Below are positions 15,171 to 60,224 of a stretch of 64,000 nt of DNA, in pieces; the first letter of the stretch is position 1, and the number at the start of each line of letters is the position of its first letter. The notes under the pieces are model-generated. The model had not been told where the DNA came from. It searched no databases and was given only the letters and a program-made list of their open reading frames with translations. A program made the position numbers and the translations under genes. The DNA is taken from NCBI GenBank assembly GCA_964609855.1, contig CAZSTB010000005.1:1467-65466 (forward strand). Reading direction: 5' to 3'. The stretch is from an uncultured Bdellovibrionales bacterium (GTDB taxonomy: Bacteria > Patescibacteriota > Minisyncoccia > Moranbacterales > GWC2-37-73).

Positions 15171-15296
15171 GAAAATAATTTAGAATTCGGAATTTCGAAT
15201 AATATCTGAATTACATAACGTTTTAAAAATTCAAAATTTAATCATTAGAAATTCATTCAAAATTCAAAATTATAAATTCAAAATTTGTTAAATATT

Positions 15297-15587: not shown

Positions 15588-15600
15588 ACTTTTTTCATAT

Positions 15601-15630: not shown

Positions 15631-16001
15631 AATACAAAAATTCAAAAATACAGTCGTTTACTGATCTAGAAGCCTGGAGAGAGGGTCATAGATTAGTATT
15701 GGGTATTTATAGGATATCGCAAAAATTTCCAAAAGAAGAAATTTATGGTTTGGTTAGTTAGATGAGAAGGTGTTCAGTTTCCATAACCTCTAATATTGCT
15801 GAAGGTTTCAGTAGGAATACCGTAAAGGATAAGTATCAATTTTATTGTGTAGCACATGGTTCGCTGACTGAATTGCAAAATCAATTATTGATTGCTCGTG
15901 ATATAAAATATTTGGAAAAAGCTGAGTTTGATAAAATTGCTTCGCAAACAATCACAGTAACAAAATTACTTAATGGTTTAAAGAGAATTAAAAATCAATG
16001 A
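15627..16001 (+). pseudogene. Four-helix-bundle protein gene (TIGR02436-type, '23S rRNA intervening-sequence protein' family) disrupted by a 1-nt insertion near 15718 and an in-frame TAG (at a conserved Gln) near 15760.
   Basis: Upstream frame reads MEYKNSKIQSFTDLEAWREGHRLVLGIYRIS. The downstream frame reads ...QKFPKEEIYGLVS*MRRCSVSITSNIAEGF, which aligns with the intact paralog at 55314-55676 (...FPKTEQYGIISQMRRAAVSIPSNIAEG). Confidence 0.7.
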
Positions 16002-17191: not shown

Positions 17192-17283
17192 TTTTATTTT
17201 TTAATTTACAATGATCAATTTACAATTTACAATTAAATATCAATTACACAATGTAAAATGAAAATTTTGAAAATTCAATGAAA

Positions 17284-17307
17284 ATTGAAAATTGTGAATT
17301 GAAAATT
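17284..17307 (+). promoter_or_regulatory. Conserved 24-mer ATTGAAAATTGTGAATTGAAAATT directly upstream of porB. Identical copy at 48808-48831, related copy near 58807-58840.
   Basis: Exact 24-nt identity between two unlinked intergenic loci. Confidence 0.5.
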
Positions 17308-17315
17308 ATTTAAAT

Positions 17316-18224
17316 ATGAACAAAGAACTTACAAAAAAATTATCAGCCGGGCACGCGACATGCGCAGGCTGTGGAATTCCGGCAATTGTGCGCACAATCT
17401 TAGGTGCAACTGACGAGCCCGTGATCATTTCCAATGCAACTGGTTGCTTGGAGGTGACGACAACAATTTATCCCTCGACTGCCTGGAAAGTTCCTTATAT
17501 CCACAGCGTCTTTGGAAACGCCAGTGCAACAGCAGCTGGCATAGATGCTGCACAAAAAGCTTTAGAGAAAGCCGGCAAGATTTCCAAGAAAGCTAAAATT
17601 GTTGTTTTTGGAGGAGATGGCTCAACATATGATATCGGTTTGCAATCACTTTCTGGCGCACTCGAAAGAGGGCATGATTTTCTTTACGTTTGTTATGATA
17701 ATGGCGGCTACATGAACACTGGAGGACAAAGGTCTGGGGCAACCCCCTATGGCGCAACAACGGAAACGGCCCCTGCAGGATTGGAATCTTTTGGAAAAAC
17801 CCAACAGCGAAAAGACTTGATGGAGATCGTCAATGCCCATGGCATCAAATATTTAGCACAGGCTAATGTTGCGAATCTTGTTGATCTTAAACGTAAAGCT
17901 GAAAAAGCTTTTAATACTCCAGGTCCTTCATTTTTGTTGGTCTTGCAGCCGTGCACTCAAATTTGGAAATTTCCAACTTCGCAGTATGTTGCGATTGGAA
18001 AATTAGCTACGGAAACAAATTTCTGGCCATTGTATGAAATCGACAATGGAAAATATATTATAAATACTGTCCCAAAAGAAAGAAAGTCAATTGAAGAGTT
18101 TCTGAAAACCCAAGGACGCTTCAAGCATTTATTTGCTGAAAAAAATAAGGCCATAATTGAAGAAATTCAAAAAATGGTTGATAAAAATTGGGAAAAATTA
18201 TTGAGAAAAACTGAAATACAATAG
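17316..18224 (+). CDS. porB: Pyruvate:ferredoxin oxidoreductase beta subunit (TPP-binding).
   Basis: CAGCGIPAI and GGDG thiamine-diphosphate motifs. Confidence 0.85.
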   Translation: MNKELTKKLSAGHATCAGCGIPAIVRTILGATDEPVIISNATGCLEVTTTIYPSTAWKVPYIHSVFGNASATAAGIDAAQKALEKAGKISKKAKIVVFGGDGSTYDIGLQSLSGALERGHDFLYVCYDNGGYMNTGGQRSGATPYGATTETAPAGLESFGKTQQRKDLMEIVNAHGIKYLAQANVANLVDLKRKAEKAFNTPGPSFLLVLQPCTQIWKFPTSQYVAIGKLATETNFWPLYEIDNGKYIINTVPKERKSIEEFLKTQGRFKHLFAEKNKAIIEEIQKMVDKNWEKLLRKTEIQ

Positions 18225-19496: not shown

Positions 19497-19567
19497 GCGT
19501 ATCTTGTGTCTCGTATCTTGTATTTCATATGAATACAGGATGCTAAATACAAAATACTGAATACGAA

Positions 19568-20314: not shown

Positions 20315-20322
20315 GATTAAAT

Positions 20323-21421
20323 ATGAAAGAAATTATTGAAAAACTTGAAGTGCTAAAAGCTAAACTCCCGCTCCTGCGGGACTATCTTTGACGTTGTAAG
20401 AAAGACGAGGAGAATTTCTGAACTCGAAGTAGCAGTTTCAGAGACTGGGTTTTGGAACGATCCACAACAGGCCGCAAAAGTTTCCAAGGAATTGGAATTT
20501 TTGAAAAATGAAATCCTCGCCATTGAAGAGGCTGAAGTGAAACTTAACGAGCTCCTTGAACTTTCAAGCATGTACGATTCCTTTTCTGATGTTGAACAAG
20601 CAGAAATTCGTAAGCAAATTGAAGAAGTCCAAAAAGAAATTGAGGCATTGGAATTTAAATCACTTCTTGGCGGAGAATATGATAAGAACGATGTAATTTT
20701 AGCGATTCGTGCTGGAGCAGGCGGCGTAGATGCGCAGGATTGGGCGATGATGTTGGAGCGTATGTTTTTAAGGTGGGCAGAAAAAAATAATTTCCAAACT
20801 AGGATATTGGATGAAACTCGCGGAGGCGAAGCTGGAATTAAGAGTGCGACAATTGAAATTTCTGGTTTTTATGCTTACGGATATCTCCAAAGTGAGGCAG
20901 GTGTTCATCGACTTGTTAGACTTTCGCCATTTAATGCTGATAACTTAAGGCAGACTTCTTTTGCGATTGCAGAAGTTCTGCCAATAATTGAAGAAATTGC
21001 CCAAGTGCATATTCAGCCGCAGGACTTAGTTATTGATACCTATCGGGCATCCGGAGCTGGTGGCCAACACGTTAATACTACCGACAGCGCAGTTCGTATC
21101 ACGCACGTTCCCACAGGTATTGTCGTTACCTGCCAAAGCGAACGTTCACAGCTTCAAAACAAGGAGCAAGCAATGAAAGTTCTCAAAGCGCGTATTCATC
21201 AGCGTTACCTGGAAGAGCAGGAGGCGGAAAAACAAAAATTGCGGGGTGAATATAAGAGCGCTGACTGGGGAAATCAGATCAGGTCTTACGTGCTTCATCC
21301 ATATAAGATGGTTAAGGATCATCGTACAAAACATGAAACAAGCGATGCGGAGAAAGTTTTGGATGGCGATTTGAACGAATTTATGGAGAGTTATTTGCGC
21401 TGGCAAGCTAATGAAAAATAG
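20323..21421 (+). CDS. prfB: Peptide chain release factor 2, requiring a programmed +1 ribosomal frameshift at CTT TGA C (20386-20392). ORF0 is 20323-20391; the +1 frame continues from 20390 to 21421.
   Basis: ORF0 is MKEIIEKLEVLKAKLPLLRDYL*. The +1 frame continues DVVRKTRRISELE... through SPF and GGQ motifs. The classic RF2 autoregulatory site CUU UGA C is present. Confidence 0.9.
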
Positions 21422-25168: not shown

Positions 25169-25295
25169 AAGGTATTAACCCCGGGGCAAGCCCTGACCCT
25201 CGCATGTAACGAGATACCTGCCTGCCCTGTCTACCGATAGGCAGGCGGTAGGTAGTAAAACGAAAATTCATTTTCGCTTCGCTTGATAATAAAAA
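25167..25295 (+). repeat. Composite intergenic repeat R2 (+ orientation): module A, module C (tacctgcctgccctgtctaccgataggcaggcggtagg), module B.
   Basis: Ends match R1 and R3. The middle matches the reverse complement of 28700-28760. Confidence 0.8.
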
Positions 25296-25302
25296 TCACC
25301 AA

Positions 25303-29291: not shown

Positions 29292-30962
29292 ATGAATACC
29301 AAGAAAAAACTACAACTGAAATTCGCAGGCATCGTACTGCTGGCTGTTATGGTCGGGCTAATTGCATATCCTCAATCAGTTAAGCGTGTGCCATACTTGT
29401 ATGAAGCTTTAAATAAATTCAATGTAAAATTGGGATTGGATTTGCAAGGTGGTATTCACCTGGAATATAAAGCAGATGTTACGAATATAGAGCCATCGAA
29501 AATAAGTGAAGCCCTTCAAGGCGCACAAGATGTGATTGAAAGACGTGTAAATGCTTTTGGCGTAGGTGAGCCATTGGTGCAAACAGCAAAAAGTGGAGAT
29601 GATTGGCGGGTAATAGTGGAATTACCAGGAGTTAAAGATATTGAGCAAGCCAAGCAACAAATAAAAGAAACTCCTCTATTGGAATTTAAAGAGGAGGGTA
29701 TGGAGCCCCAAATCGCAGAAATGTTCGATTCTCAAAATGCACAAGCCAAAGAAAAAGCTGAGGGGTTACTAAGGGAAGTTAAGGCTGGGGGTGATTTTGA
29801 GCAACTAGCTAAGGAAAATAGTCAGGATTCTGGCTCGAAAGAAAAAGGTGGAGATTTGGACTTTGTTAAAAAAGGTGCATTTGTTCCTGAATTTGACAAG
29901 GTGCTTTTCGAGGAAAAACTGAAACCAGGAGAAGTTTATCCCGAATTGGTAGAATCGGATTTTGGTTGGCATATTATTAGATTGATGGAAACGAGAGGAG
30001 AAGGGGATGATCTCGAAGTCCGCGCCCAGCATATTCTATTGAGCAAACTGAATCTTGATCAATATCCGCAATTTAAATACAAAGCAACAGGGCTTACTGG
30101 AAAAAACCTAAAAAGTGCAAGTGTAGTTTTTCAGAGTCAAGGAATTGGAGAGCCGCAAATTTCTTTGAAATTCGATGATGAGGGTACAAAGCTTTTTGCC
30201 GACCTGACAAAGGCAAATCTTGGCAAAACAATTGCAATTTTATTGGACGGCGAAATTATCAGCGCACCGACTGTGCAATCTGAAATCACAAATGGTGAGG
30301 CTGTTATTACAGGGCAATTTACCGTACAAGAAGCAAAAGAACTAGCTAAAAGCCTGAATACGGGGGCACTTCCAGTTCCGCTTACGTTGGTTGGGCAACA
30401 AAGTATTGAAGCCACATTAGGCGCTGACTCATTGCGTACGAGTGTTATTGCTGGAGCAATCGGTCTTGGAGCGGTTATACTTTTTATGTTGATATTCTAT
30501 CGTTTCTTGGGTTTAGTCGCATCGTTGGCATTGCTCATCTACACTGCGCTGATGATTGCCATTTTTAAATTTACGGGAATCACACTTACGCTTTCTGGAA
30601 TTGCCGGTTTCGTGCTTTCTATTGGTATGGCCGTGGATGCGAATATCTTAATTTTTGAACGAACTAAAGAGGAAATCAGAAACGGAAGAACCATTGCTAA
30701 TTCACTTGACGAAGGATTTAAGCGGGCATGGACTTCCATTCGCGACGGTAACATCTCATCACTTCTAACTGCAGGTATCCTATATTTGATGGGCACGGGG
30801 TTTGTGAAAGGTTTTGCTGCCGCCCTGTTTATCGGAGTTGTAGTTTCAATGTTTACCGCAGTAGTAATTACTCGCACCATGCTTAAATTTATCATAAGTG
30901 ATTGGATTCATGGTCGCACTTGGATGGTTGGGGTTAGAAAATCCAAAATAAAGTCAGAATAA
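29292..30962 (+). CDS. secD: Protein translocase subunit SecD carrying a parvulin-type peptidyl-prolyl isomerase (PpiC) domain in the periplasmic P1-head position.
   Basis: SecD base (LGLDLQGGIHL, VIERRVNAFGVGEP) and C-terminal SecDF TM core. The internal segment GGDLDFVKKGAFVPEFDKVLFEEKLKPGEVYPELVESDFGWHIIRLMETRG matches the parvulin signature (GGDLGxxxxGxMVPEFE...FGWHII). Confidence 0.8.
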   Translation: MNTKKKLQLKFAGIVLLAVMVGLIAYPQSVKRVPYLYEALNKFNVKLGLDLQGGIHLEYKADVTNIEPSKISEALQGAQDVIERRVNAFGVGEPLVQTAKSGDDWRVIVELPGVKDIEQAKQQIKETPLLEFKEEGMEPQIAEMFDSQNAQAKEKAEGLLREVKAGGDFEQLAKENSQDSGSKEKGGDLDFVKKGAFVPEFDKVLFEEKLKPGEVYPELVESDFGWHIIRLMETRGEGDDLEVRAQHILLSKLNLDQYPQFKYKATGLTGKNLKSASVVFQSQGIGEPQISLKFDDEGTKLFADLTKANLGKTIAILLDGEIISAPTVQSEITNGEAVITGQFTVQEAKELAKSLNTGALPVPLTLVGQQSIEATLGADSLRTSVIAGAIGLGAVILFMLIFYRFLGLVASLALLIYTALMIAIFKFTGITLTLSGIAGFVLSIGMAVDANILIFERTKEEIRNGRTIANSLDEGFKRAWTSIRDGNISSLLTAGILYLMGTGFVKGFAAALFIGVVVSMFTAVVITRTMLKFIISDWIHGRTWMVGVRKSKIKSE

Positions 30963-31080
30963 TTTCGAATTTTTAATTTAGAATTTCGATTCAATTTTGA
31001 ATGACTAAATGTTTGAAACATCGGAACATTAATATTTTCATTCAAAATTGAAAATTGGAAATTCAAAAAATTTATCAACT

Positions 31081-34560: not shown

Positions 34561-34621
34561 TGTCATCCTGAACTTGTTTCAGGATCTATATTTTAGATTC
34601 CGGATTAAGTCCGGAATGACA
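34561..34621. mobile_element. MITE-like element with TGTCATCC...GGAATGACA termini and two arm hairpins (atcctgaa/ttcaggat; ttccgga/tccggaa), between tyrS and pheS.
   Basis: Termini are inverted repeats. The left arm is identical over 29 nt to the element inside folC. Related termini at 52815-52888 and 60051-60121. Confidence 0.6.
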
Positions 34622-39348: not shown

Positions 39349-40626
39349 ATGGATATTCTTTCAAGTTCACTTCAGGAAATATTATCTTCATTAAAAGAGG
39401 TTGGTCAGGTAATGAGCTATACATGGTTCATTGTTTTGCCGCCTCTTTTTTATTTTCTGTTTATGGAGCTTTGGATAGCGCATATTAGTGGATCATATGC
39501 GGGAACTTTGGAATGGGTGCTTTTGGAAATTATCCCCCCAAAAAATATTGAAAAAAGTCCTAAACCTATGGAGGCCCTGTATAATGGTATGGCTGGAACG
39601 GAGGCGAGTTTGAATGTTTTAGACCAATTTGTTGCTGGAAAATTTCAAGATACTTACAGCTTGGAAATAGTAAGTGATGGTGGCGATGTGCATATGTACA
39701 TCAGAACGCAAAAGAAATATCGACATTTAGTTGAAGCGCATCTTTATTCTCAATATCCGGATATTGAAATTTTGGAAGTGCCTGATTATGTTGATGATAT
39801 TCCAAAAGTTGTGCCGAATGCCGAATGGGATCTTTGGGGAGCTGATTTGCAATCAGTAAAAAAAGAACCAGGTTATCCGATTAGAACATACAAAGCTTTT
39901 GAAGAAGATATCACTGGCAAAATGATCGACCCCTTGGCTGGGTTGGCAGAATCGATGGGGAAACTTCCACCGGGGCAAAAACTCTGGATGCAGATCATCA
40001 TTTCCGCACATCCACCGGTATGGAACAGTACGGTTGGCAAAAAACTTACGGATAAGTTGAAATTCAGAGAAGTAAAAAAAGATGATCCCTGGGAAAAATT
40101 CATTCAGGATCTTAAGGATGTTTTTGGAAACCTTTGGGCGGCAACGCAAGGACCCGTCGAATTTGAAAAAGCAAAAAAGAAAGAAGAGTCCCCATTGGAT
40201 ACCAGGCTTTCACCTGGAGAACGCGACGTGCTTAAGGCTGTCGAAGATAATCTGGGGAAAATTCAATTCTTAACGAAAATTAGATTCCTACTCGTCGGAA
40301 GAAAGGAAAATTTTGACAAATCTTTTGTATCTTCTTTCATGGGAGGTATAAAACAATTCGGGGATGACAATCTAAATTCGCTTAAGCCGGAAGATTCGTC
40401 AAAGACGTACGCGAATTTCATCATGAAAAAATCTCGCTTGAGATATCGTCAGAGAAAGATTCTTAGACGTTATCGCGGCCGAAGTAGAGATGGTGTGACC
40501 TTAACAATGAGTAGTGAGGAATTGGCAACGATTTTCCATTTGCCTGATATGAATGTTATGGCACCTTCGCTTTCTCGTGTGGAAGCAAAACGTGGCGGTG
40601 CGCCATCTAACCTGCCTATAGAATAA
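39349..40626 (+). CDS. Hypothetical membrane-anchored protein (425 aa). Partner of the downstream ATPase.
   Basis: N-terminal TM helix (WFIVLPPLFYFLFMELW), large soluble domain, basic C-terminus. Confidence 0.45.
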   Translation: MDILSSSLQEILSSLKEVGQVMSYTWFIVLPPLFYFLFMELWIAHISGSYAGTLEWVLLEIIPPKNIEKSPKPMEALYNGMAGTEASLNVLDQFVAGKFQDTYSLEIVSDGGDVHMYIRTQKKYRHLVEAHLYSQYPDIEILEVPDYVDDIPKVVPNAEWDLWGADLQSVKKEPGYPIRTYKAFEEDITGKMIDPLAGLAESMGKLPPGQKLWMQIIISAHPPVWNSTVGKKLTDKLKFREVKKDDPWEKFIQDLKDVFGNLWAATQGPVEFEKAKKKEESPLDTRLSPGERDVLKAVEDNLGKIQFLTKIRFLLVGRKENFDKSFVSSFMGGIKQFGDDNLNSLKPEDSSKTYANFIMKKSRLRYRQRKILRRYRGRSRDGVTLTMSSEELATIFHLPDMNVMAPSLSRVEAKRGGAPSNLPIE

Positions 40627-40630
40627 AATG

Positions 40631-40706
40631 CAGGAATTAGCTAGTAGGATTTAGCTTGTAGCAAACAGCTTTCCTGATTCCTAACTCCTAATTCCTAACT
40701 CCTGAT
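40631..40706. repeat. Inverted pair of heptamer arrays with no cargo: caggaat|tagctag|taggatt|tagcttg|tagc ... loop ... cctgattcctaactcctaattcctaactcctgatt. Predicted long imperfect hairpin.
   Basis: 7-bp periodicity (TAGNNNN / NNNNCTA). The right array is the reverse complement of AGGAGTTAGGAATTAGGAGTTAGGAATCAGG, matching the arrays at 55307 and 57070. Confidence 0.55.
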
Positions 40707-40734
40707 TTTTAATATTTAATACTACAACGTTAGT

Positions 40735-42885
40735 ATGGCTAATAACGAAATCGCATTCTTTGCAAAAACAAATTTTAGAAATGAAGAAAGAGTTTTCGGA
40801 ATAAAAACTGACGACCGCACCCGGCACATGTACATCATTGGAAAGACCGGTATGGGTAAGACGAACTTGCTGGAAAATCTGGTAGTGCAAGATATTCGCA
40901 ATGGTCATGGAATTTGCTATATCGACCCGCACGGCGACACGGCTGAAAAACTTCTAAAAGCAGTACCGGCGAATCGTATCAATGATGTTATTTATTTGAA
41001 TCCGTCCGACCAAAATTTCCCTTTGGCATTTAATGTTATGGAATCTGTAGATCCTGATTATCGCCATTTGGTGGCGTCGGGCTTGATTGGCGTTTTCAAA
41101 AAAATCTGGGCCGATTCTTGGGGACCTCGCTTGGAATATATTTTACGTAATGCTATCTTAGCGCTTTTGGAATATCCTGGCAGTACTTTGCTTGGAGTTA
41201 CACGTATTTTGGTAGACAAGAAATATCGCGAGAAAGTCGTTGAAAAAGTTACCGATCCTGTAATCAGGCAATTTTGGGTTGATGAATTTCCAAAATGGAG
41301 CGACAAAGTTTTGCAGGAAGTGGTATCTCCGATTCAGAATAAGGTTGGACAATTCTTGTCCAGTTCTTTGATTAGAAACATTGTCGGTCAGACGCAATCT
41401 TCCTTTGATATTAGAAACGCGATGGATACTAGAAAGATTTTAATTCTAAATCTTTCAAAAGGAAGAATCGGTGAAGATAACAGTGCCTTGTTGGGCGCGA
41501 TGATGATCACTAAGATTCAGCTGGCCGCCATGGGACGTGTTGATATTCCTGAAGAAGATCGAAAGGATTTTTATCTGTATGTCGATGAGTTTCAAAACTT
41601 CGCGACGGAATCTTTTGCAAACATTTTGTCTGAAGCTCGAAAGTATCGTTTGAATCTTATTTTAGCGAATCAGTATATCACTCAGATCGACGAAAAAGTT
41701 CGCGACGCGATTTTTGGTAATGCCGGAACGATTATTTCATTTCGTGTGGGCGCTACGGATGCGGAATTTTTGGAAAAAGAATTCGCACCAGTTTTTGTGC
41801 AGAACGATATTGTGAACCTTCCGAAATATAATGTATATCTGAAACTCATGATTGATGGTATTGCGGGCGACGCTTTTTCGGCAAAAGTTTTGCCTCCGGT
41901 GTACATTGGCGACACCATTGATAATGAGGAAAAAATTATTGCGGCTTCACGTGAGCGTTATGCTTCAAGCAAGGAAGAAGTTGAAGACAAGATTTCTCGT
42001 TGGGCAGGTATTATGCCGGCACAAGGATTTCAGACTGTGAACAAGGGTCCGATGGCAGGAGCTACTACCTATCCGAATCCTGCAGCCCGAACGGCGCAAA
42101 ATTATACCCAAAGTCAGCAATTTCAGCCTGCACAAAGCGGTTCGCAAAATTCTGCAAATCAAGTGCAGAACAACTCTCCGCAACCTCAAGCTCCCAAATT
42201 CGAGCCTCAGCGACCCCAAGTGGCTCCACCTGAGCTGCCAAAGGAGACGCGGCTGCAATTTACAGCTCCTTTGCCACCTGTAGCCCCTCAGCAGCCCCAT
42301 AGCTCGATTGAACCTCAGAAAGTTATACAAGCGCAGCCCCAATTCCAGTCAGCTCCCGAATTCGACGATTTAGGAGAATATAATCAACCGGAACCTCCTA
42401 AGCCTGTCTTTGAAGCGGTTTGCGATATGTGCGGCGAAAACATTCAAGTTCCATTTCAGCCGGATGGAAAACGCCCAACTTTTTGCAAGGATTGTCTCAA
42501 GGATTATCAGCGAATGACGGCAAAGGAGAAATTAAACCAGGAAAGAAAGATGCAGCGCGAGCAGGAGGACTCTCGTCAGCAAGCTGTTCCTTTTCAGCCG
42601 CCAAGAATGTCACAGCCAACTCCGAGTTATCCGCCAACGCATGGGATGCAACAACCACAGTATGCCGCACCTTCAAGATCACAGCGAGAGCAACCTAGAA
42701 CATCTACCCCAACCGAAAGACGTGTTGAACCGAAATCTTACGCTCCGCAAGAAGCTCCAATGTCACTTTCTCAAATGTCTCACATTGCACCTAAGAAATT
42801 TAAGTCGCAACGTCAGCGTCCGAATGTGAATTTGGATGAAGTGAGAAATTTGATCAATCAAACGCGCAGTGGCGAAGAAAAATAA
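40735..42885 (+). CDS. TraD/TraG/VirD4-family (type IV coupling protein-like) P-loop ATPase. Soluble form with a Q/P-rich low-complexity linker and a C-terminal CxxC...CxxC zinc ribbon.
   Basis: Walker A YIIGKTGMGKT, Walker B LYVDEFQNF. The C-terminus CDMCGENIQVPFQPDGKRPTFCKDC is a zinc ribbon. Confidence 0.5.
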   Translation: MANNEIAFFAKTNFRNEERVFGIKTDDRTRHMYIIGKTGMGKTNLLENLVVQDIRNGHGICYIDPHGDTAEKLLKAVPANRINDVIYLNPSDQNFPLAFNVMESVDPDYRHLVASGLIGVFKKIWADSWGPRLEYILRNAILALLEYPGSTLLGVTRILVDKKYREKVVEKVTDPVIRQFWVDEFPKWSDKVLQEVVSPIQNKVGQFLSSSLIRNIVGQTQSSFDIRNAMDTRKILILNLSKGRIGEDNSALLGAMMITKIQLAAMGRVDIPEEDRKDFYLYVDEFQNFATESFANILSEARKYRLNLILANQYITQIDEKVRDAIFGNAGTIISFRVGATDAEFLEKEFAPVFVQNDIVNLPKYNVYLKLMIDGIAGDAFSAKVLPPVYIGDTIDNEEKIIAASRERYASSKEEVEDKISRWAGIMPAQGFQTVNKGPMAGATTYPNPAARTAQNYTQSQQFQPAQSGSQNSANQVQNNSPQPQAPKFEPQRPQVAPPELPKETRLQFTAPLPPVAPQQPHSSIEPQKVIQAQPQFQSAPEFDDLGEYNQPEPPKPVFEAVCDMCGENIQVPFQPDGKRPTFCKDCLKDYQRMTAKEKLNQERKMQREQEDSRQQAVPFQPPRMSQPTPSYPPTHGMQQPQYAAPSRSQREQPRTSTPTERRVEPKSYAPQEAPMSLSQMSHIAPKKFKSQRQRPNVNLDEVRNLINQTRSGEEK

Positions 42886-42915
42886 TCTATCAGATAAACT
42901 CCTAGTAATGGGAGT

Positions 42916-43052
42916 TTATTATCAAGCGAAGCGAGCGAAATGAAAAATTAATATTTTCCATTTCCGAGCAAGTGTAGATATCAAAAGGTATAATACCTCG
43001 CAGCTCTGCCCCAAAGGGTCCAGGGCTCTGCCCTGGGGTATGATACCTTTTA
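42916..43052 (-). repeat. Composite intergenic repeat R3 (- orientation), closest relative of R1.
   Basis: Reverse complement: aaaggtatcataccccagggcagagccctggaccc...ggtattataccttttgatatc...tttcatttcgctcgcttcgcttgataataaa. Confidence 0.85.
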
Positions 43053-43076
43053 TTTTTTTGAATAAATTTATGCTTA

Positions 43077-48717: not shown

Positions 48718-48807
48718 AAGGCTCAAAATAACCAATTTTCAATAATCAATTCTCAATTCACAATGAATTTTCAATTTTCAATTTTTTAATTGCAAATTCT
48801 GGTTTTA

Positions 48808-48831
48808 TTGAAAATTGTGAATTGAAAATTG
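48808..48831 (+). promoter_or_regulatory. Second copy of the conserved 24-mer ATTGAAAATTGTGAATTGAAAATT, about 25 bp upstream of the rplU promoter.
   Basis: Identical to 17284-17307. Confidence 0.5.
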
Positions 48832-48857
48832 GAAATTCTGGCAAAATGCCTTTGTAC

Positions 48858-50911: not shown

Positions 50912-51010
50912 ATGGGGCAGCTTATTAGGTTTTTAGCTTCTTAGCTTTTTAGGAATAACTTAGTACTTTGCTGAAAAGCTAAGAAGCTACTGCCTGAAAA
51001 GCTGTTAAAA

Positions 51011-52814: not shown

Positions 52815-52888
52815 TTTGTCATCCTCAGCTTGACTGGGGATCCAGAGCCCTGCCTAGCCCTGGATTCTCGTTTACACGGGAATGACAT
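52815..52888. mobile_element. MITE-like element TTGTCATCC...CGGGAATGACA (about 74 bp) in the long non-coding region upstream of dnaB.
   Basis: Terminal inverted repeats match those at 34561-34621 and 60051-60121. Confidence 0.5.
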
Positions 52889-53042
52889 AGGAGGTTATTT
52901 GATTTTGCAAGGTTTGGATATGGCTAACGAAAGAAGCTTGGAACGTTTTGATAATTACTTTTCTTAAATTTTATTTGAGCATACGATTATCTGAAAAACT
53001 TAACCAAAATGAATCCCTACAGCCATATTGCGTATGATTCTA

Positions 53043-53870: not shown

Positions 53871-55301
53871 TTAGGAAGCTGGCTTTATCTTTGGTCCTTC
53901 GCTTGTATCTTCGACCACGAAGCCATGTTTTTCAATAAGTGCTCTGAGTTCGTCTGATTTTTTGAAATCTTTTTGATCTCTGGCAGCTTCGCGTTTTTGC
54001 ATGAGTTCTTTCACTTCTGTAGGAATTTCTGCTTGACCCTGTAGGATGAGTCCAAAGACGCTATTCATTCTGTTCCAGAGCGACAAAATTTTCTTGGCAT
54101 CCTCGGAGCTGATGTCCTCATTGGTTTGGCGAATATTGAATTCGGTTATAAGTTCATAGAGTTGACTTAATGCAAGCGGAGTGTTGAGGTCATCATCTAA
54201 GGCGCTCTCAAATTTTTCCTTGTGAGATGTGATTTCAAATTCTTTGGCGCTTGGTTTTTCTGATTTGGCTAAAATTTCTAAATTCAAAATGAAATCATTA
54301 ATTTTTTGCAAGTTCTTATGAGCTTGCATTATGGCATCCCAAGAAAAATCCATTTGAGAACGGTAATGCGATGAAAGGAATAGGACCCTCAGATCCATCG
54401 GTGAAAAACCTTTCTCAATGATGTCTTCAAGTTTGTATAAATTACCCTTGGATTTGCTCATTTTTTCTCCATTCATCAAGAGATGGCGACCATGAATCCA
54501 GAATCGGACATATTTTTTTCCGGTGAAGCATTCAGTTTGTGCAATTTCTGCTTCATGATGCGGGAAGATGTTATCTTCGCCACCAGTGTGAATATCAATG
54601 GTTGAACCGAGGTATTCCGTGCTCATGGCGCTGCATTCAATATGCCAGCCTGGATAACCGATTGACCATGGAGAATGCCATTTTAAAAGATGGGCTTCAG
54701 GCGCTTTGAGCCAAAGTGCGAAATCCCAGGGATTTCTTTTGTCTGGATGTTCTTCGAGGCGAGCTCCTACTTTTAAATTTTCCAGCGTATTGCCAGAAAG
54801 TTTTCCGTATTCTTCAAATTTGGTCACATCAAAAAATACATTGCCATTCACTTCGTAAGCGTAGCCTTTTTCAATCAGTCCTTCGATTATTTTAATCATT
54901 TGCGGAACGTGCTTGGTGGCGCGTGGGAAATATTGAGCAGGCAAAATATTCAATTGTTTTTCAACATCCTTAAAATATTCCTCATAAAATCTGGCTATTT
55001 CTTCAGGGGTCTTTTTTTCAGCTAAAGCAGCCTTAAGCATCTTATCTTCGCCAGCATCACCTTGGGCAATATCATCAGCGGTAAGATGTCCGACATCGGT
55101 AATGTTTTTGATTTGTCGAACTTCATAGCCAATGTATTCCAAATAGCGTCTTACGATATCAGAAAGTAGGTAGGCACGAATATTACCAATGTGCACAAAG
55201 CCGTAAACTGTGGGACCGCAAGTATACATCCCAACCTTACCGGGATTAAGCGACTCAAATTCTTCCTTTTGTTTGGAGTAGGTATTGTAAATCTTTAACA
55301 T
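53871..55301 (-). CDS. cysS: Cysteine--tRNA ligase.
   Basis: Class I motifs: HIGN (HIGH variant), KMSKS, and zinc-binding Cys residues. Confidence 0.9.
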   Translation of the reverse strand: MLKIYNTYSKQKEEFESLNPGKVGMYTCGPTVYGFVHIGNIRAYLLSDIVRRYLEYIGYEVRQIKNITDVGHLTADDIAQGDAGEDKMLKAALAEKKTPEEIARFYEEYFKDVEKQLNILPAQYFPRATKHVPQMIKIIEGLIEKGYAYEVNGNVFFDVTKFEEYGKLSGNTLENLKVGARLEEHPDKRNPWDFALWLKAPEAHLLKWHSPWSIGYPGWHIECSAMSTEYLGSTIDIHTGGEDNIFPHHEAEIAQTECFTGKKYVRFWIHGRHLLMNGEKMSKSKGNLYKLEDIIEKGFSPMDLRVLFLSSHYRSQMDFSWDAIMQAHKNLQKINDFILNLEILAKSEKPSAKEFEITSHKEKFESALDDDLNTPLALSQLYELITEFNIRQTNEDISSEDAKKILSLWNRMNSVFGLILQGQAEIPTEVKELMQKREAARDQKDFKKSDELRALIEKHGFVVEDTSEGPKIKPAS

Positions 55302-55306
55302 AGGCG

Positions 55307-55340
55307 TTAGGAATTAGGAGTTAGGTTGTAGGGATGAGGA
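55307..55340 (+). repeat. Heptamer array TTAGGAA|TTAGGAG|TTAGGTT|GTAGGGA|TGAGGAT, left flank of the intact four-helix-bundle gene. Overlaps its last codons.
   Basis: Strict 7-bp periodicity. Inverted relative to 55727-55759. Confidence 0.7.
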
Positions 55341-55676
55341 TAATTTATTTAGCATCCTCATTATTTCCTGTAGTAAGCAATCAATTGCTTTATACTTCAT
55401 TGGGTCAGAATAATTCAATCTTTTTGTGATTTCTATCTGCGTTTCAAGTTCTGATCCACTACCGTAAGCAATTATTAAAAAATGCCTGAATTCTTTTCTG
55501 CTGCTTCTTCTGCGGCCTTCAGCTATGTTTGAAGGGATAGAAACGGCAGCACGTCTCATTTGAGATATGATGCCATATTGTTCAGTTTTTGGAAAGTCCT
55601 CGGTTAGTTTGTATATTTCCAAGACCAAATCCATGGATTTTTGCCAAACAATTAGGTCTTTGTATGAAGTTATCAT
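55314..55676 (-). CDS. Four-helix-bundle protein (TIGR02436-type; the family first found in 23S rRNA intervening sequences), intact copy.
   Basis: ITSYKDLIVWQKSMDLVLEIYKLTEDFPKTEQYGIISQMRRAAVSIPSNIAEG matches the family core. Confidence 0.75.
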   Translation of the reverse strand: MITSYKDLIVWQKSMDLVLEIYKLTEDFPKTEQYGIISQMRRAAVSIPSNIAEGRRRSSRKEFRHFLIIAYGSGSELETQIEITKRLNYSDPMKYKAIDCLLQEIMRMLNKLSSSLQPNS

Positions 55677-55726
55677 GAGGATATGGAATTTGAATATTTA
55701 CTTCTAATTCTTTATGCTGGTAATAA

Positions 55727-55759
55727 GCTACAACCTAATTCCTACAACCTAAATCCTTA
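55727..55759 (-). repeat. Heptamer array, right flank (reverse complement AGGATTTAGGTTGTAGGAATTAGGTTGTAGC). Forms an inverted pair with 55307-55340 around the gene.
   Basis: gctacaacctaattcctacaacctaaatcctta on the + strand. Confidence 0.7.
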
Positions 55760-56810: not shown

Positions 56811-57074
56811 ATGAAAGTGATGAAATTAGCTAAAAAAATGTTCTTATTTTTGATTAAAGTCTATCAAAAAGTTTTTTCTCTTGATCATGGGATACCTTCA
56901 TTTTTTTGGGGTGGTAGGATTTGTAGATTTCATCCATCCTGCAGTCATTATATGTATCAGGCAGTTGAAAGATTTGGAATTATTAAGGGTTTCTGGCTTG
57001 GATTGAAGAGATTTTTCAGGTGCCATCCCTGGAACGATGGGGGATATGATCCGGTGCCGAAGAGCAGGAGTTAG
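56811..57074 (+). CDS. yidD: Membrane protein insertion efficiency factor YidD.
   Basis: [18 protein letters not shown]...[14 protein letters not shown] is a near-complete YidD signature. Confidence 0.85.
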
Positions 57075-57180
57075 GTCGTAGGAAGTAGGTGGTAGGATGA
57101 AACTGGAATTATGAATTAGGCTGTGGGAATGATGTGGTAGGATTTAGGAATTAGGTGGTGGGTTGTGGTGATTAAAATTG
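57070..57180 (+). repeat. Two direct heptamer arrays (GCAGGAG|TTAGGTC|GTAGGAA|GTAGGTG|GTAGGAT ... TAGGATT|TAGGAAT|TAGGTGG|TGGGTTG|TGGTGAT).
   Basis: 7-bp periodic TAGG repeats in the same orientation. No cargo ORF between them. Confidence 0.55.
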
Positions 57181-57280: not shown

Positions 57281-57463
57281 ATGGAAAATTGCGACGGAAA
57301 AGTAATAAACATGAAATGTCTCGGTTGCCAATTTCTTCCTTTGTGTTTGGAGGAAAAGGTGTTTTCAAAGGAGTTGGATGGAGATAAGGAAAAGTTGATC
57401 TTGAACTCTTGTCCGAAAACGGAAAAGGGCGATGGTCACATCGCTTGTTGTTGCTGCGATTAA
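57281..57463 (+). CDS. Cys-rich small protein (60 aa, 9 Cys, C-terminal ACCCCD) with a strong SD.
   Basis: AGGAGG 8 nt before the ATG. CxxC-type spacing in several places. Confidence 0.45.
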   Translation: MENCDGKVINMKCLGCQFLPLCLEEKVFSKELDGDKEKLILNSCPKTEKGDGHIACCCCD

Positions 57464-57557
57464 TGCATGATTACATATTCAAAAACAAGGAGGTGAAACT
57501 TGGTGAATTTTAAATTTTCCATTGGAATGTAACCTTAACCTGTAAAAGGAGTGATTT

Positions 57558-57797
57558 ATGCCGAGGAACCAGAGAGAAACAACCAGAATCATCGGCCGTG
57601 GAAAAAAAACAAGAAGCGCGGGCTTGATTGTTGCACCTCCAAGCAATGATGAGATCATCGTAACCGTTCATCCATCCTGTCCACTTAAGTCAGGTGGTTA
57701 CGTAGCGCCGGGAAATGGCCCGTTCGATACCATGCCACTTTCAAGCAGGGAATTGGATATCTGTCACAATAAATGCGGAAAAGCGTGCGTGCTGTAA
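57558..57797 (+). CDS. Small Cys-containing protein (79 aa) with an SD.
   Basis: AAGGAGTG 6 nt before the ATG. Terminator aaaccgctctga-gtatat-cagagcggttttt at 57818-57848. Confidence 0.45.
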   Translation: MPRNQRETTRIIGRGKKTRSAGLIVAPPSNDEIIVTVHPSCPLKSGGYVAPGNGPFDTMPLSSRELDICHNKCGKACVL

Positions 57798-57868
57798 TTA
57801 GCATGTCGCTTAAAGAAACCGCTCTGAGTATATCAGAGCGGTTTTTAATTTTTTTGTAAAAATAAAGA

Positions 57869-57895
57869 TTAGCACTCGGACTTGACGACTGCTAA
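57869..57895. promoter_or_regulatory. CIRCE operator (TTAGCACTC-N9-GACTGCTAA; one mismatch to consensus) overlapping the hrcA promoter TTGACG-17-TATAAT (57882-57910).
   Basis: ttagcactcggacttgacgactgctaa, followed by atcggcatat tataat. Confidence 0.75.
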
Positions 57896-57964
57896 TCGGC
57901 ATATTATAATGAATTTGTAATAAAGCTAGGAAGCTAAAAAGCTAAATCCTAATAAGTTGTTCAT

Positions 57965-58708
57965 ATGAACGAAAGACAAGAAAAAATTTTAGCAGCTGTC
58001 GTTGAAGAATATACTCAAACGGCTGTTCCTGTTGGGAGTCAGATTCTGGCTGGTAAATATGGCTTTCAGGTAAGCTCGGCAACCATCAGAAATGACATGA
58101 TGACTCTTGAGGAGGAGGGATATTTATATCAGCCACATATTAGTGCTGGTAGAATTCCAACTGATAATGGTTACAGATATTTTGTGGAAGAGGTCATGAA
58201 AGATAAGGTGCTTTCAAAAGAGGAACAGCAGATAATGCAAAAAGAATTTTTAAAATTAAAGGCTCAAAATAAACGACTCACGAGAACAACAGCGAAACTA
58301 CTTTCCCATGTTAGCGGAAATTTTGCTATCAGTAGTTTGCAGGAAAACGATGAATTTGCGGAATTTGGAATGCGCGAACTTATGGAGGCTCCGGAATTCC
58401 AAGAAATGGATGAAATGTGCAGGGTAGTTGAAATGCTGGATTATATCGATGAGAAATTTGACCAGCTGACAAAGGGTATTAAGGAGGGAGAAACGAGGAT
58501 ATTCATTGGGAAAGAAAATCCTATCCATCCAACTGCCAATTGTTCTATGATTGTTTCCCCCTATAGGTTGAAAAACGGCGAGAAAGGAATCCTGGCATTA
58601 ATCGGACCAAAAAGAATGAAGTATGCTCAGAACAAGTCTATGATTGATTATGTAAAAAAGCTCCTGGGAGCATCAATGGTGATAATAGTAATGATAAATA
58701 TCGTTTAA
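57965..58708 (+). CDS. hrcA: Heat-inducible transcription repressor HrcA (short form).
   Basis: N-terminal winged HTH (ILAAVVEEYTQTAVPVGSQILA). CIRCE site upstream. grpE-dnaK downstream. Confidence 0.8.
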   Translation: MNERQEKILAAVVEEYTQTAVPVGSQILAGKYGFQVSSATIRNDMMTLEEEGYLYQPHISAGRIPTDNGYRYFVEEVMKDKVLSKEEQQIMQKEFLKLKAQNKRLTRTTAKLLSHVSGNFAISSLQENDEFAEFGMRELMEAPEFQEMDEMCRVVEMLDYIDEKFDQLTKGIKEGETRIFIGKENPIHPTANCSMIVSPYRLKNGEKGILALIGPKRMKYAQNKSMIDYVKKLLGASMVIIVMINIV

Positions 58709-58845
58709 ATAATTTTCAATGCTCAATTCTCAATTTTCATTGAATTTTCAAATCATAATTATTGATAATGCATCTGTTTAAGAACTTTTTCATTGTAAAT
58801 TGATTGTGAATTGAAAACTGTAAATTGAAAATTGATATTAAATTT

Positions 58846-59774: not shown

Positions 59775-60050
59775 GGCACACCTCTTGAATTCATTGTTAA
59801 CGTACTAACGAGTATAGATTTTATATCACATATCATGTTCATTGTCAAGTACCGGGAAATAAAAAAAACCCGCATGGGCATTTGTTGAAATATCCCGCAC
59901 GGGCGAGCAGGCAAGCGCTGTGCCAAGCTCTGGATTCAGTATACAACGCACAATAGACAATATGCAACAGACAAAAGACAAAAGACAACATGCAAAATAC
60001 AACAGTCAAATGTAAAATACAACAACTACAATTCTAAACATGCAGGCACA

Positions 60051-60121
60051 TTGTCATTCCCATGAAAATGGGAATCCAGGTTCGAGAGAATCCACGGATT
60101 ATAAATTCATGGGAATGACAA
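60051..60121. mobile_element. MITE-like element TTGTCATTCC...GGGAATGACAA upstream of dnaK.
   Basis: 10-bp terminal inverted repeats. Internal hairpin attcccatgaaaatgggaat. Confidence 0.55.
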
Positions 60122-60224
60122 TAAAAATTAAATAATTTAATAAATTATAAAATCCTATTGGAATTACTATTTGTACATTTGTAAATTTGTAATAGATTTG
60201 TAATTTCGTAGGAGCAAAAAGAAT

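Follow-up and report, generated by a model that had tools for sequence, protein, structure and literature searches.

Knowledge of rRNA intervening sequences (IVSs) and of their S23p/four-helix-bundle (4HB) ORF goes back to about 1990, as does that of the heptamer repeats of cyanobacteria. To our knowledge, there is no accepted function or origin for the IVSs and the S23p ORF, or for the cyanobacterial heptamer repeats. The rRNA IVSs of Leptospira, Coxiella, Salmonella and others have complementary ends that form an extended stem, and they occur in forms with and without an ORF; where present, the ORF belongs to the 4HB family PF05635. In Coxiella, two to three tandem GACAGAT heptamers lie 5' of the S23p ORF, in a copy number that varies between strains (Warrier et al. 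2016, PMC4990558). The 5' cut by RNase III falls at the first heptamer repeat, and rRNA IVSs are the only elements for which excision by RNase III without re-ligation has been demonstrated experimentally (PMC4990558).

Tandem heptamers are also described outside rRNA. The cyanobacterial STRR and the prokaryotic LSSR heptamers are tandem, longer than expected by chance and mostly intergenic, and long heptamer repeats change their copy number in 7-nt steps (background in PMC4679880). TAACTGA heptamers are found intergenically in Beggiatoaceae, Cyanobacteria and Bacteroidetes (MacGregor 2015, PMC4679880). Nearly all of them repeat one invariant unit in direct orientation, and only one inverted case is reported; the arrays end a few nucleotides before the start codons of genes that often lack a Shine-Dalgarno sequence, and a post-transcriptional role has been proposed for them (PMC4679880). 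The same paper makes no mention of 4HB genes.

The window, by which we mean the whole 64-kb stretch of DNA analysed, comes from an uncultured bacterium of groundwater and contains an ORF-less hairpin at 40632-40705 that has the complementary ends of an rRNA IVS; its upstream arm, like those of the 4HB cassettes, consists of tandem heptamers as in Coxiella. Unlike the rRNA IVSs, it sits between protein-coding genes rather than in a 16S or 23S rRNA helix, and it has no ORF of its own; the corresponding PF05635 ORF is present in a sister element (55314-55676) and as a pseudogene in another (15627-16001). The arrays here are tandem and mostly intergenic, as are the STRR and LSSR heptamers, and the cyanobacterial 4HB genes that were examined are flanked by STRR/LSSR-like heptamer arrays. 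However, the arrays described here form complementary inverted pairs whose polarity is fixed, and they go with a single gene family. Their units are locus-specific and presumably differ from the named STRR1-3 units. In contrast to the TAACTGA class, the units at 40632-40705 are TAGGAxT and AxTCCTA, in an inverted pair that ends 29 nt from the next ATG.

REP/BIME and REPIN-RAYT elements are similar in being short, dispersed, intergenic palindromes, with a small gene between inverted repeat copies, but the flanked gene here encodes a 4HB protein and not an IS200/IS605-like tyrosine transposase, and the unit sequences vary by locus. Integron cassettes have a single 3' attC, whereas the repeats here lie on both sides of the gene, and no integrase was found in the contexts examined. 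Avd of the diversity-generating retroelements is a homologous 4HB pentamer (the homology is discussed in PMC10053308). The 4HB protein of the window has weak matches to PF22296 and NF033474 and falls below the Avd cut-off (29.9 versus 80 bits), and neither a reverse transcriptase nor a template or variable repeat was present beside the cassettes examined.

We consider it fairly likely that the hairpin at 40632-40705 belongs, as a partly degenerated copy that lacks an ORF, to a widespread group of stem-loop cassettes with inverted heptamer or octamer arms, the full form of which carries a 4HB gene.

The Hairpin at 40632-40705

The hairpin has three parts:

40632-40663, + strand: 5' arm, AGGAATT AGCTAGT AGGATTT AGCTTGT AGC; C-poor, TAG phased at 7 nt, repeat family D4
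40664-40672, + strand: loop of 9 nt without an ORF, AACAGCTTT
40673-40705, + strand: 3' arm, CCTGATT CCTAACT CCTAATT CCTAACT CCTGA; G-poor, contains a 20-mer that is also found in the 3' arm of the 4HB cassette

Inverted arrays around an ORF-less loop of about 10 nt had been predicted at 40631-40706, and they are present within one nucleotide of those bounds, with four TAG/AGG-AGC heptamers opposite five CCT heptamers and a loop of about 9 nt. The reverse complement of the 3' arm reads TCAGGAG TTAGGAA TTAGGAG TTAGGAA TCAGG. Tandem Repeats Finder reported arrays of period 14/7 at 40632-40661 and 40671-40707. The arms have the periodicity and polarity of the cassettes, being (T)AG-phased and C-poor on the 5' side and CT(A)-phased and G-poor on the 3' side. 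A CRISPR array was ruled out, as the 7-mers are contiguous and have no spacers.

The hairpin lies between a DUF8128 gene, the TAA stop codon of which (40624-40626) is just 5' of it, and a co-directional gene for a VirD4/TrwB-like ATPase. The 425-aa protein encoded upstream had been called a membrane protein, which is plausible given its single N-terminal hydrophobic segment. The RNA fold of 40632-40705 was -22.3 kcal/mol (z -2.7) for the + strand and -26.5 kcal/mol (z -3.7) for the - strand. The stem is AU-rich, interrupted and weak, with about 60% complementarity; it is imperfect because AGG and AGC units alternate in the left arm. The ATPase start is 29 nt past the end of the stem and is therefore not occluded by it. 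No Rfam match was found up to E 1 in 40550-40800, and the whole window returned one tRNA only. An rRNA match was absent from the whole window, and the locus is thus outside any rRNA helix.

Related Arrays and Cassettes in the Window

The following features of the window bear on the assignment of the hairpin:

15603-16039, + strand: second cassette, in the porD-porA gap; 5' arm AGTATCC AGTATAT GGTATCC TGTATGG, followed by a 4HB pseudogene and a 3' arm
15627-16001, + strand: 4HB pseudogene of the second cassette, 40% identical to the first 4HB, with an in-frame TAG at 15759-15761
16005-16039, + strand: 3' arm of the second cassette, (AAATACC)x5
19499-19565, + strand: ORF-less hairpin with GTAT/ATAC units as in the 15603-16039 cassette; -21.9 kcal/mol, z -4.0
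50917-51004, - strand: ORF-less hairpin of TAGCTTxT octamers with a perfect 16-bp stem; -33.8 kcal/mol, z -5.9
55301-55335, - strand: 3' arm of the 4HB cassette, sense CCCTACAACCTAACTCCTAATTCCTAACGCCTA; overlaps the final 4HB codons and ends at the cysS ATG
55314-55676, - strand: 4HB gene, PF05635 141.7 bits, TIGR02436 135.7 bits; homologue of PDB 2GSC
55727-55757, - strand: 5' arm of the 4HB cassette, sense AGGATTT AGGTTGT AGGAATT AGGTTGT AGC; begins 8 nt past the CorA stop
57066-57100, + strand: first orphan 5'-type array, AGGAGTT AGGTCGT AGGAAGT AGGTGGT AGGATGA
57139-57168, + strand: second orphan 5'-type array, AGGATTT AGGAATT AGGTGGT GGGTTGT GG; same sense as the first, without an adjoining 3' partner
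57923-57951, + strand: 3'-type array, AAGCTAGG AAGCTAAA AAGCTAAA TCCTAA; just 5' of the hrcA start at 57965

The 4HB gene scored well above the family cut-offs (33.8 for PF05635 and 24 for TIGR02436) and matched PDB 2GSC with E 1.2e-25; its true start may be at 55634 rather than at the annotated position. The paired arms of its cassette (55301-55757) enclose a domain of about 420 nt, with a fold z of -4.7. Of the ORF-less hairpins, that at 19499-19565 extends from the stop codon of the rubrerythrin gene to the start of the ZIP-transporter gene, and that at 50917-51004 occupies the whole gap between two co-directional genes.

A scan of the 64 kb for AGG phased at 7 nt in runs of at least three units found only five: 40669-40703 (-), 55302-55343 (+), 55730-55757 (-), 57066-57100 (+) and 57139-57159 (+). 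These are the loci of the original prediction together with both flanks of the 4HB gene, and the arrays at 40632 and 57066 therefore belong to one family with those flanks. Repeat clustering likewise placed 40631-40665, 55301-55335, 57065-57099 and 57138-57172 in a single family (D4), and an exact 20-mer (chance expectation in the window, 0) is common to 40680-40699 (+) and 55306-55325 (-); the 4HB cassette with which the hairpin shares this arm sequence is about 15 kb away. The assertion that the arrays are of the class that flanks the 4HB gene is thereby borne out. The same 20-mer was present in 16 stretches of viral contigs of 41-70% GC, most of them without a 4HB gene nearby; its identity within the window is thus no proof of copying within the genome, and we dropped that explanation.

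Same-orientation TAGG arrays had also been reported after yidD, at 57070-57180, and they were found at 57066-57168. They are orphan 5' arms of the same cassette-arm family as the hairpin. The first TAG of the 57066-57100 array serves as the stop codon of yidD (57072-57074), and this array is retained 3' of yidD in the relative L114. No fold was predicted for the direct arrays at 57066-57168 (z +1.0). The array at 57923-57951 is a possible distant partner, judging from the motifs TAGGATTTAG/CTAAATCCTA common to both.

In total, the window has 29 arrays of period 7 or 8, compared with 1-3 in locally shuffled sequence, and 23 of the 29 are intergenic in a window that is 18% non-coding. An SD-like motif precedes 7 of 43 genes.

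Array Architecture at 4HB Genes

The flanks of 4HB homologues were analysed in 69 non-redundant, independent metagenome loci, and consisted of tandem arrays of period 7 and sometimes 8. Arrays scoring at least 10 had period 7 in 32 upstream and 28 downstream flanks and period 8 in 4 and 6, respectively; none of 70 shuffled flanks reached this score. The arms were complementary with z > 3 in 60 of the 69 loci (median z 8.1). The mean duplex energy was -35.2 kcal/mol for cognate arms versus -12.4 kcal/mol for non-cognate arms, and the cognate arm was the best-pairing partner in 27 of 46 loci. Polarity was fixed, with phased AG in 50 of 57 5' arms and phased CT in 45 of 54 3' arms; the full phased cores are (T)AG and CT(A), respectively, and C makes up 10% of the 5' arms and G 9% of the 3' arms. 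The 4HB gene and both of its neighbours were on the same strand in 23 of 34 loci. The upstream stop codon lay -7 to +16 nt from the arm start in 20 of 24 loci (it was TAG in 13 of the 24), and the downstream ATG lay -1 to +16 nt from the arm end in 19 of 27. Stop codons in all three frames, considered as a reason for the period of 7, were present in 37 of 57 5' arms, but 3' arms (sense) have them likewise (29 of 54), so this property does not discriminate.

The same arm architecture was observed on plasmids of Nostoc, Calothrix, Anabaena, Pseudanabaena, Geminocystis, Picosynechococcus, Gemmatirosa and Riemerella (cyanobacterial, Gemmatimonadota and Bacteroidota) and in viral contigs. In an Azospirillum locus (L110), the heptamer arms are inside a true 23S rRNA IVS (bacterial LSU rRNA match, 500.8 bits). 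The proposed association of arrays with TIGR02436/PF05635 genes therefore proved to be very strong and general, across the 69 loci, the plasmids and the viral contigs. The searchable literature contains no description of a heptamer-arm rule with fixed polarity for IVSs, nor of a general link between PF05635/TIGR02436 genes and flanking heptamer arrays, although Elhai et al. (2008), on small cyanobacterial repeats, may describe one.

Simple repeats offer the first alternative, in which the arrays would be functionless long simple-sequence repeats of the LSSR/STRR type, produced by polymerase slippage in AT-rich intergenic DNA, with the inversion as a by-product of quasi-palindrome template switching. 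Among the long repeats of prokaryotes, heptamer units are the most frequent (Mrazek et al. 2007, as cited in PMC4679880), and arrays of many unit types are indeed common between genes, with about 3.5-4.5 per 10 kb in these genomes and 3.5 per 10 kb away from 4HB genes. Turnover between strains is fast, and the arm mismatches have no excess of G·U (37 G·U, 51 A·C and 92 other among 1283 paired positions in 46 arm pairs), so there is no wobble signature of RNA-level selection on either strand. The original prediction had named ubiquity without association to cassette genes as a reason for doubt, and on this the result is mixed: the arrays are common, but they are about 5-fold denser beside 4HB genes. 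Simple repeats also do not account for the fixed polarity with its phased AG/CT core, for pairing that is specific to the arms within each cassette, or for the exact placement from stop codon to start codon. Furthermore, the 26-nt core of the 55301-55335 arm is 100% identical in a species with 71%-identical CorA DNA, and the 20-mer is identical in viral contigs over a wide range of GC content. We regard this explanation as unlikely.

A second alternative is that the arrays are protein binding sites read at 7-nt spacing, for which the pentameric 4HB protein would be the prime candidate, acting in trans on dispersed cis sites in the manner of RAYTs and REPINs. Consistent with this, 4HB genes and arrays are found together in nearly all cases across phyla, the AG/CT core is kept at a fixed phase, and arm sequence is conserved more than a stem requires. 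Of the arrays lying over 220 nt away from a 4HB gene, 25% shared an 8-mer with the arms of that gene, against 4% for the arms of other loci, and for each 4HB copy in the window there is an ORF-less hairpin with the same type of unit (TAGG at 40632, GTAT at 19499). However, the arm unit tracks the similarity of the 4HB protein weakly (Spearman 0.09, p 0.009), and orthologous cassettes change from TAGG heptamers to TAGCTTAT octamers while the protein is retained. The arrays also persist at a 4HB pseudogene, most of the viral contigs with the 20-mer have no 4HB gene nearby, and nucleic-acid binding by this 4HB subfamily is putative. This explanation is, in our view, quite unlikely.

Comparison of the Site among Relatives

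The DUF8128-ATPase junction was compared in nine relatives (L003, L006-L010, L112 and L113, plus identical contigs). In distant relatives the junction is tight, with almost no spacer and no insert; the position is taken by other inserts in closer relatives, and by an unrelated hairpin in a strain that is 98.8% identical. The junction was originally tight, and separate lineages now carry separate inserts. The site is a turnover hot-spot, in agreement with the earlier suggestion of an insertion hot-spot. The difference between the strains is bordered by clustered synonymous changes, the pattern expected for homologous import of a diverged allele.

In the suggested comparison of filled and empty sites, none of the nine relatives had a filled (4HB-containing) allele at the DUF8128-ATPase site, which held other inserts or nothing. 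The CorA-4HB-CysS cassette is stably inherited in species at 72-83% CorA identity; L114, the one relative without the 4HB gene between CorA and CysS, has three TGTATnn units there and no TAGG hairpin, and thus gives no example of an ORF deletion that leaves an empty hairpin.

The near-absence of a spacer also bears on a third alternative, in which the hairpin would be a common intrinsic terminator or attenuator that separates one transcription unit from the next. While a T-rich stretch (CTCCTGATTTTTAATATTT) lies 3' of the stem, a terminator and promoter scan of 40300-41000 called nothing at the hairpin and no promoter downstream, and the stem is AU-rich and interrupted. The near-spacerless adjacency of the DUF8128 and ATPase genes in distant relatives indicates that they are co-transcribed, and sister hairpins lie between subunit genes of one pyruvate:ferredoxin oxidoreductase operon. 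A terminator is thus very unlikely.

The least probable account, which we think can hardly be correct, makes the hairpin a site of recombination, or the footprint of a cassette that is mobile as DNA (attC-like, a transposon end pair or the excision scar that had been suggested): inverted arms do surround a gene or nothing, near-identical strains are polymorphic at the site and similar arrays are scattered through the genome, but there was no footprint evidence or evident target-site duplication, no integrase, transposase or recombinase was found near any cassette examined (nor a transposase domain in the 30 window proteins, about half of the window genes, scanned against Pfam), the CorA-4HB-CysS cassette is stable across species, and the strain difference fits homologous import.

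Proposed Mechanism and Significance

The shared architecture and the mapping of the Coxiella RNase III cut to the heptamers led us to interpret 40632-40705 as an insertion between two genes of the same direction, in the form of an IVS-like stem-loop with a weak stem. We infer a mechanism of RNase III processing, translational coupling or both. The element would be transcribed within the DUF8128-ATPase message and form an imperfect hairpin. Like the heptamer stems of rRNA IVSs, this hairpin could act as an RNase III processing site, so that the insertion would be tolerated within the operon. Alternatively or additionally, a ribosome terminating upstream could melt the 5' arm; the G-poor 3' arm, once released, would give the next gene a leader free of structure, and Shine-Dalgarno sequences are seldom used in this genome. 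Slippage and quasi-palindrome template switching at the DNA level probably contribute as much as selection on the RNA to keeping the arms complementary.

A broader reading joins the 4HB "IVS protein" and the heptamer-array stems into a single two-component system that would occur in bacteria and phages alike. The pentamer would recognise, protect or propagate stems whose heptamers carry a phased (T)AG; the non-autonomous members of the system would be the ORF-less hairpins (40632-40705, the cyanobacterial STRR-like arrays and the phage copies). We consider this doubtful; if true, insertions within rRNA genes, operons and even single genes would do no harm at the level of the RNA.

The hairpin at 40632-40705 is itself a minor, degenerate copy. 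The general rule to which it leads is that PF05635 genes sit between complementary, polarity-fixed arrays of 7-8-nt repeats. The rule applies to PF05635 genes within rRNA, to those lying between operon cistrons (CRISPR-Cas and oxidoreductase operons among them) and to those of phage contigs, and ORF-less stems of the same kind are dispersed in the same genomes. It joins three phenomena that have been described separately, namely the IVSs, the STRR/LSSR heptamers and the heptamer arrays close to start codons. In practical terms, the arrays break short-read assemblies and can mislead gene callers, and they can hold or adjoin the stop and start codons of their neighbours.

Hairpin at 40632-40705 and related heptamer arrays

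The original prediction described two inverted heptamer arrays at 40631-40706 and assigned them to the repeat class that flanks the gene of the four-helix-bundle protein (4HB; PF05635/TIGR02436). The arrays were checked in the sequence and are real, both being detected by Tandem Repeats Finder. The locus is an ORF-less heptamer hairpin resembling a ribosomal RNA intervening sequence (IVS). Its arms lie 9 nt apart, and the alternation of AGG with AGC units in the left arm makes the stem imperfect.

Heptamer loci of the window and their neighbours
39349-40626: DUF8128 protein, 425 aa, with one N-terminal hydrophobic segment; upstream neighbour of the hairpin
40632-40663: hairpin 5' arm, AGGAATT AGCTAGT AGGATTT AGCTTGT AGC
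40673-40705: hairpin 3' arm, CCTGATT CCTAACT CCTAATT CCTAACT CCTGA
40735-42885: VirD4/TrwB-like ATPase, 716 aa; downstream neighbour of the hairpin
55314-55676 (-): 4HB gene flanked by CorA and CysS; 5' arm AGGATTT AGGTTGT AGGAATT AGGTTGT AGC; 3' arm CCCTACAACCTAACTCCTAATTCCTAACGCCTA, ending at the cysS ATG
57066-57100 and 57139-57159: arrays after yidD, found by the scan for phased AGG
15627-16001: second 4HB copy, a pseudogene with an in-frame TAG, 40% identical to the first; arms of another unit type, AGTATCC/AAATACC
19499-19565: ORF-less hairpin of the AGTATCC/AAATACC type

The window has a GC content of 38% and is matched at 100% identity by Logan contigs of runs SRR446575-7. The closest relatives of its proteins are from Candidatus Moranbacteria/Moraniibacteriota (Patescibacteria/CPR). 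It contains 29 arrays of period 7 or 8, compared with 1-3 in shuffles, and 23 of the 29 are intergenic, though 82% of the window is coding. The scan of the 64 kb for AGG phased at 7 nt found five runs only, namely the hairpin locus, the two arrays after yidD and both 4HB flanks; a repeat-family search placed the same loci in a single family (D4). The 3' arms of the hairpin and of the 4HB cassette have an exact 20-mer, CCTAACTCCTAATTCCTAAC, in common (0 expected in the window), and the hairpin 5' arm ends with the same motifs as the cassette 5' arm (...TAGGATTTAG...TTGTAGC). The predicted kinship with the 4HB flanks was supported by the scan, the family search and the 20-mer.

The fold of 40632-40705 was predicted at -22.3 kcal/mol (z -2.7) on the plus strand and -26.5 kcal/mol (z -3.7) on the minus strand. 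In the predicted fold of the cassette at 55314-55676, the arms pair and enclose the entire gene (z -4.7). The arrays after yidD run in one direction and have no predicted structure (z +1.0). The stem at 40632-40705 is weak, with the ATPase start 29 nt past it, and this hairpin may be a family member in decay and close to neutral. There was little support for reading it as a terminator, an attC-like site or a transposon footprint.

The 20-mer was also present in 16 viral-contig stretches (L143-L158) with GC contents of 41-70%, and several of these are ORF-less hairpins with the polarity of 40632-40705; its identity is therefore no proof of copying within the genome. Arm sequences of the TAGGAGT/TAGGAAT type evidently recur and are under constraint, and an AT-rich array found unchanged in a contig of 70% GC suggests either that it spreads horizontally or that its sequence is strongly constrained. 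The viral copies are often ORF-less hairpins or lie just upstream of opposite-strand genes. The units of the 20-mer resemble the Shine-Dalgarno (AGGAG) and anti-Shine-Dalgarno (CUCCU) cores.

In the second 4HB copy, a single in-frame TAG at 15759-15761 replaces the conserved Gln of the family (S-Q-M-R-R to S-*-M-R-R), the ORF being otherwise intact around it. A recent pseudogene is the likelier reading, a recoded codon the less likely one. The copy lies in a pyruvate:ferredoxin oxidoreductase operon (14583-18224) with a heptamer hairpin at every junction of the gamma, delta/ferredoxin, alpha and beta genes, one of these hairpins being the pseudogene cassette itself. The alpha-subunit ORF starts at 15998, and its 5' end meets or includes the (AAATACC)x5 arm.

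Site history

In distant relatives (43-53% protein identity), the DUF8128-ATPase spacer is very short and without arrays, and the hairpin is therefore an insertion. A strain 98.8% identical to the window over 2.4 kb (L003) has, at the same position, an unrelated hairpin whose periodicity is ~21 nt. A 64%-identical species (L113) has an CGAATCTACGAAT array resembling that of L003, and an 83%-identical species (L112) has another insert again, of ~200 nt. The junction is thus a hot-spot of hairpin turnover, as the original prediction had allowed. No evidence was found for an excision footprint, which it also suggested, or for an empty site awaiting a cassette, and no 4HB gene was present at this junction in the relatives compared (the distant relatives, L003, L113 and L112). 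Three synonymous changes and a different stop codon between L003 and the window are clustered in the last 15 nt of the gene, and the strain difference has more the look of an imported, diverged allele than of an exact swap of cassettes.

Unlike these inserts, the CorA-4HB-CysS cassette is inherited. It was found in relatives with CorA identities of 83, 77 and 72%, and its arms are homologous, with TAGG heptamers in three lineages and TAGCTTAT octamers in a fourth, where both arms changed together. A 26-nt core of the 3' arm is identical across species with CorA DNA at 71% identity. A relative with 81% CorA identity (L114) has neither the 4HB gene nor TAGG arms at CorA-CysS; it has kept the TAGG array after yidD, including the first TAG, which serves as the yidD stop. 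In a related species (L095-L101), the 3' side of the orthologous cassette has 2 to at least 4 tandem copies of a ~45-nt unit that includes the entire arm (about 1850-2020 in L095), with the copy number varying by sample. Several of these scaffolds have N-gaps at the ~45-nt repeats, and such arrays break short-read assemblies.

Architecture of 4HB loci

Eighty metagenome loci were fetched with 4HB protein similarity as the sole criterion, and 69 non-redundant loci with flanks were analysed for periodicity and complementarity. Arrays scoring at least 10 were of period 7 (32 upstream, 28 downstream) or 8 (4 upstream, 6 downstream), and none was seen in shuffled flanks. The flanks were complementary to one another (z>3) in 60/69 loci, with a mean duplex energy of -35.2 kcal/mol for cognate arms versus -12.4 kcal/mol for the arms of other loci. 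The arm units vary by locus (TAGCTTT, TAGTGGC, TAGGGAC, CAGTGGC and others), and the polarity is constant: the 5' arms have 10% C, with AG phased in 50/57 arrays and TAG in 33/57, and the 3' arms have 9% G, with CT phased in 45/54. As the arms are inverted, this polarity is the same from either strand, and so belongs to the element rather than reflecting the orientation of neighbouring genes.

The cassettes fit exactly between genes. The 4HB gene and its two neighbours are all on one strand in 23/34 loci; the stop codon on the upstream side falls -7 to +16 nt from the arm start in 20/24 loci (TAG in 13/24), and the next ATG lies -1 to +16 nt from the arm end in 19/27. In some metagenome and viral contigs, L047 (~1090-1700), L123, L130 and L131 (~1380-2000), the cassette seemingly lies within one long ORF, the upstream frame ending ...FGRYSLD..GL..AGG and the downstream frame resuming with motifs like ...LHGIDIDPR. 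Judged by eye, the ORF looks like a candidate large BREX/PglX-type DNA methyltransferase, a putative gene that the cassette would split.

The association of arrays with TIGR02436 genes, which the original prediction had put forward for testing, held: array density was ~5-fold higher in the vicinity of 4HB genes (121 arrays no more than 220 nt from 79 such genes, versus 3.5 per 10 kb beyond). Beyond 220 nt, 25% of the arrays of the metagenome loci have an 8-mer in common with the arms of that locus's gene, versus 4% with those of other loci. This co-occurrence and sharing of array sequence within genomes speak in favour of a possible heptad-reading protein, perhaps the 4HB pentamer (the protein of 55314-55676 is a homologue of the pentameric XCC0516, structure 2GSC). 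A simple version is opposed by the weak correlation between 4HB protein and arm unit (r 0.09), by the change of unit type between orthologous cassettes and by the viral array copies without 4HB. Neutral simple-sequence repeats would account for the abundance and turnover of the arrays, but leave polarity, cognate complementarity, placement and conservation unexplained.

The same architecture was found on plasmids of Nostoc, Calothrix, Anabaena (between cas6 and cas4), Pseudanabaena, Geminocystis, Picosynechococcus (between cmr2 and cmr3), Gemmatirosa and Riemerella, and in viral contigs. An Azospirillum 4HB locus is bacterial LSU rRNA by Rfam (500.8 bits) and is a true 23S rRNA IVS, with the arms CAGAGGA CGGATGA CAGAGGA... 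/ ...CCGTCCTCTGTCTTCTGTCATCCGTC. The Coxiella IVS has 2-3 tandem GACAGAT heptamers 5' of the ORF of the same family (S23p), the copy number varies among strains, and the RNase III 5' cut is at the first repeat (PMC4990558). IVSs come with or without an ORF, as an extended stem in place of a helix tip. The hairpin at 40632-40705 is of value mainly as a pointer to an architecture general to the PF05635 gene family and apparently undescribed; no general rule tying the family to inverted heptamer arrays was found in the literature searched.

Possible mode of action

Architecture, placement, polarity, insertion history and kinship to 4HB cassettes and a true IVS were shown here; the element itself would, we infer, act at the RNA level. 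RNase III may excise it at the arm duplex in the manner of an IVS, parting the upstream message, the cassette and the downstream message. Such excision is experimentally established for rRNA IVSs with heptamers of this kind. Alternatively, through translational coupling, a ribosome terminating at the stop in or adjoining the 5' arm could melt the stem and free the G-poor 3' arm, unable to fold on itself, as a leader for the next start codon. Coupling would fit this genome, since an SD-like motif was present within 20 nt upstream in only 7/43 ATG-start genes of the window and since sister hairpins separate the gamma, delta, alpha and beta genes of the pyruvate:ferredoxin oxidoreductase operon. 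Most gene leaders in the window are A/T-rich and G-poor. The organism appears to rely mainly on Shine-Dalgarno-independent initiation, a known feature of Bacteroidetes and Cyanobacteria, which are likewise phyla with many heptamer arrays.

The arm mismatches (37 G·U, 51 A·C and 92 other) showed no G·U excess, which counts against a purely RNA-selected structure; complementarity may instead be restored in the DNA itself, through slippage and template switching at quasi-palindromes, an established mechanism.

Other elements of the window

A second family of ORF-less intergenic hairpins is composed of AT-rich heptamers (17192-17314, 48724-48840 and 58704-58835; also 6600-6667, 15223-15287 and 30960-31068). 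Its polarity is reversed: G is scarce in the 5' arm (CAATTTT...) and C in the 3' arm (...GAAAATTG). Copies at separate loci are close relatives, with 94% complementarity between 17266-17314 and 58704-58752 across 49 nt, and look like a dispersed REP/MITE-like family. A GC-richer intergenic element of ~130 nt, GGTATTAAACC...CGCTCGCTTCGCTTGATAATAAA, is present in three copies in both orientations (13560-13700, 25169-25300 and 42915-43060), 13662-13692 and 42915-42945 being 100% complementary, and has the appearance of a MITE-like repeat. Another sequence, TGTCATCCTGAACTTGTTTCAGGATCTATA, forms a perfect inverted pair of 30-nt copies at 2952-2981 and 34561-34590, one copy within the Mur-ligase ORF. 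Related palindromic elements, GTCATTCC...GGAATGAC, lie in other intergenic regions (52815-52905 and 60045-60125), the latter bracketed by the heptamer arrays ACAAAAG and ATTTGTA.

The yidD-hrcA interval (57283-57465, 57554-57793 and 57818-57910) contains two small ORFs of 60 aa (Cys-rich) and 79 aa, both called genes in the source contigs. A strong terminator-like hairpin comes after them; another locus (L115) has a comparable Cys-rich ORF after yidD. Upstream of hrcA are a CIRCE-like inverted repeat, TTAGCACTC-N9-GACTGCTAA, and a promoter-like TTGACG/TATAAT pair. The release factor 2 gene has a classical programmed +1 frameshift site (TAT CTT TGA C) in the region 20322-20491, between a short upstream frame and the main ORF (20492-21421); the organism therefore uses UGA as a stop codon. 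An 87-nt upstream region is duplicated with 86% identity (330-416 and 1314-1400), preceding the adjacent genes 414-1280 and 1398-1916, both without Pfam matches, and looks like a tandem duplication of leader plus gene.
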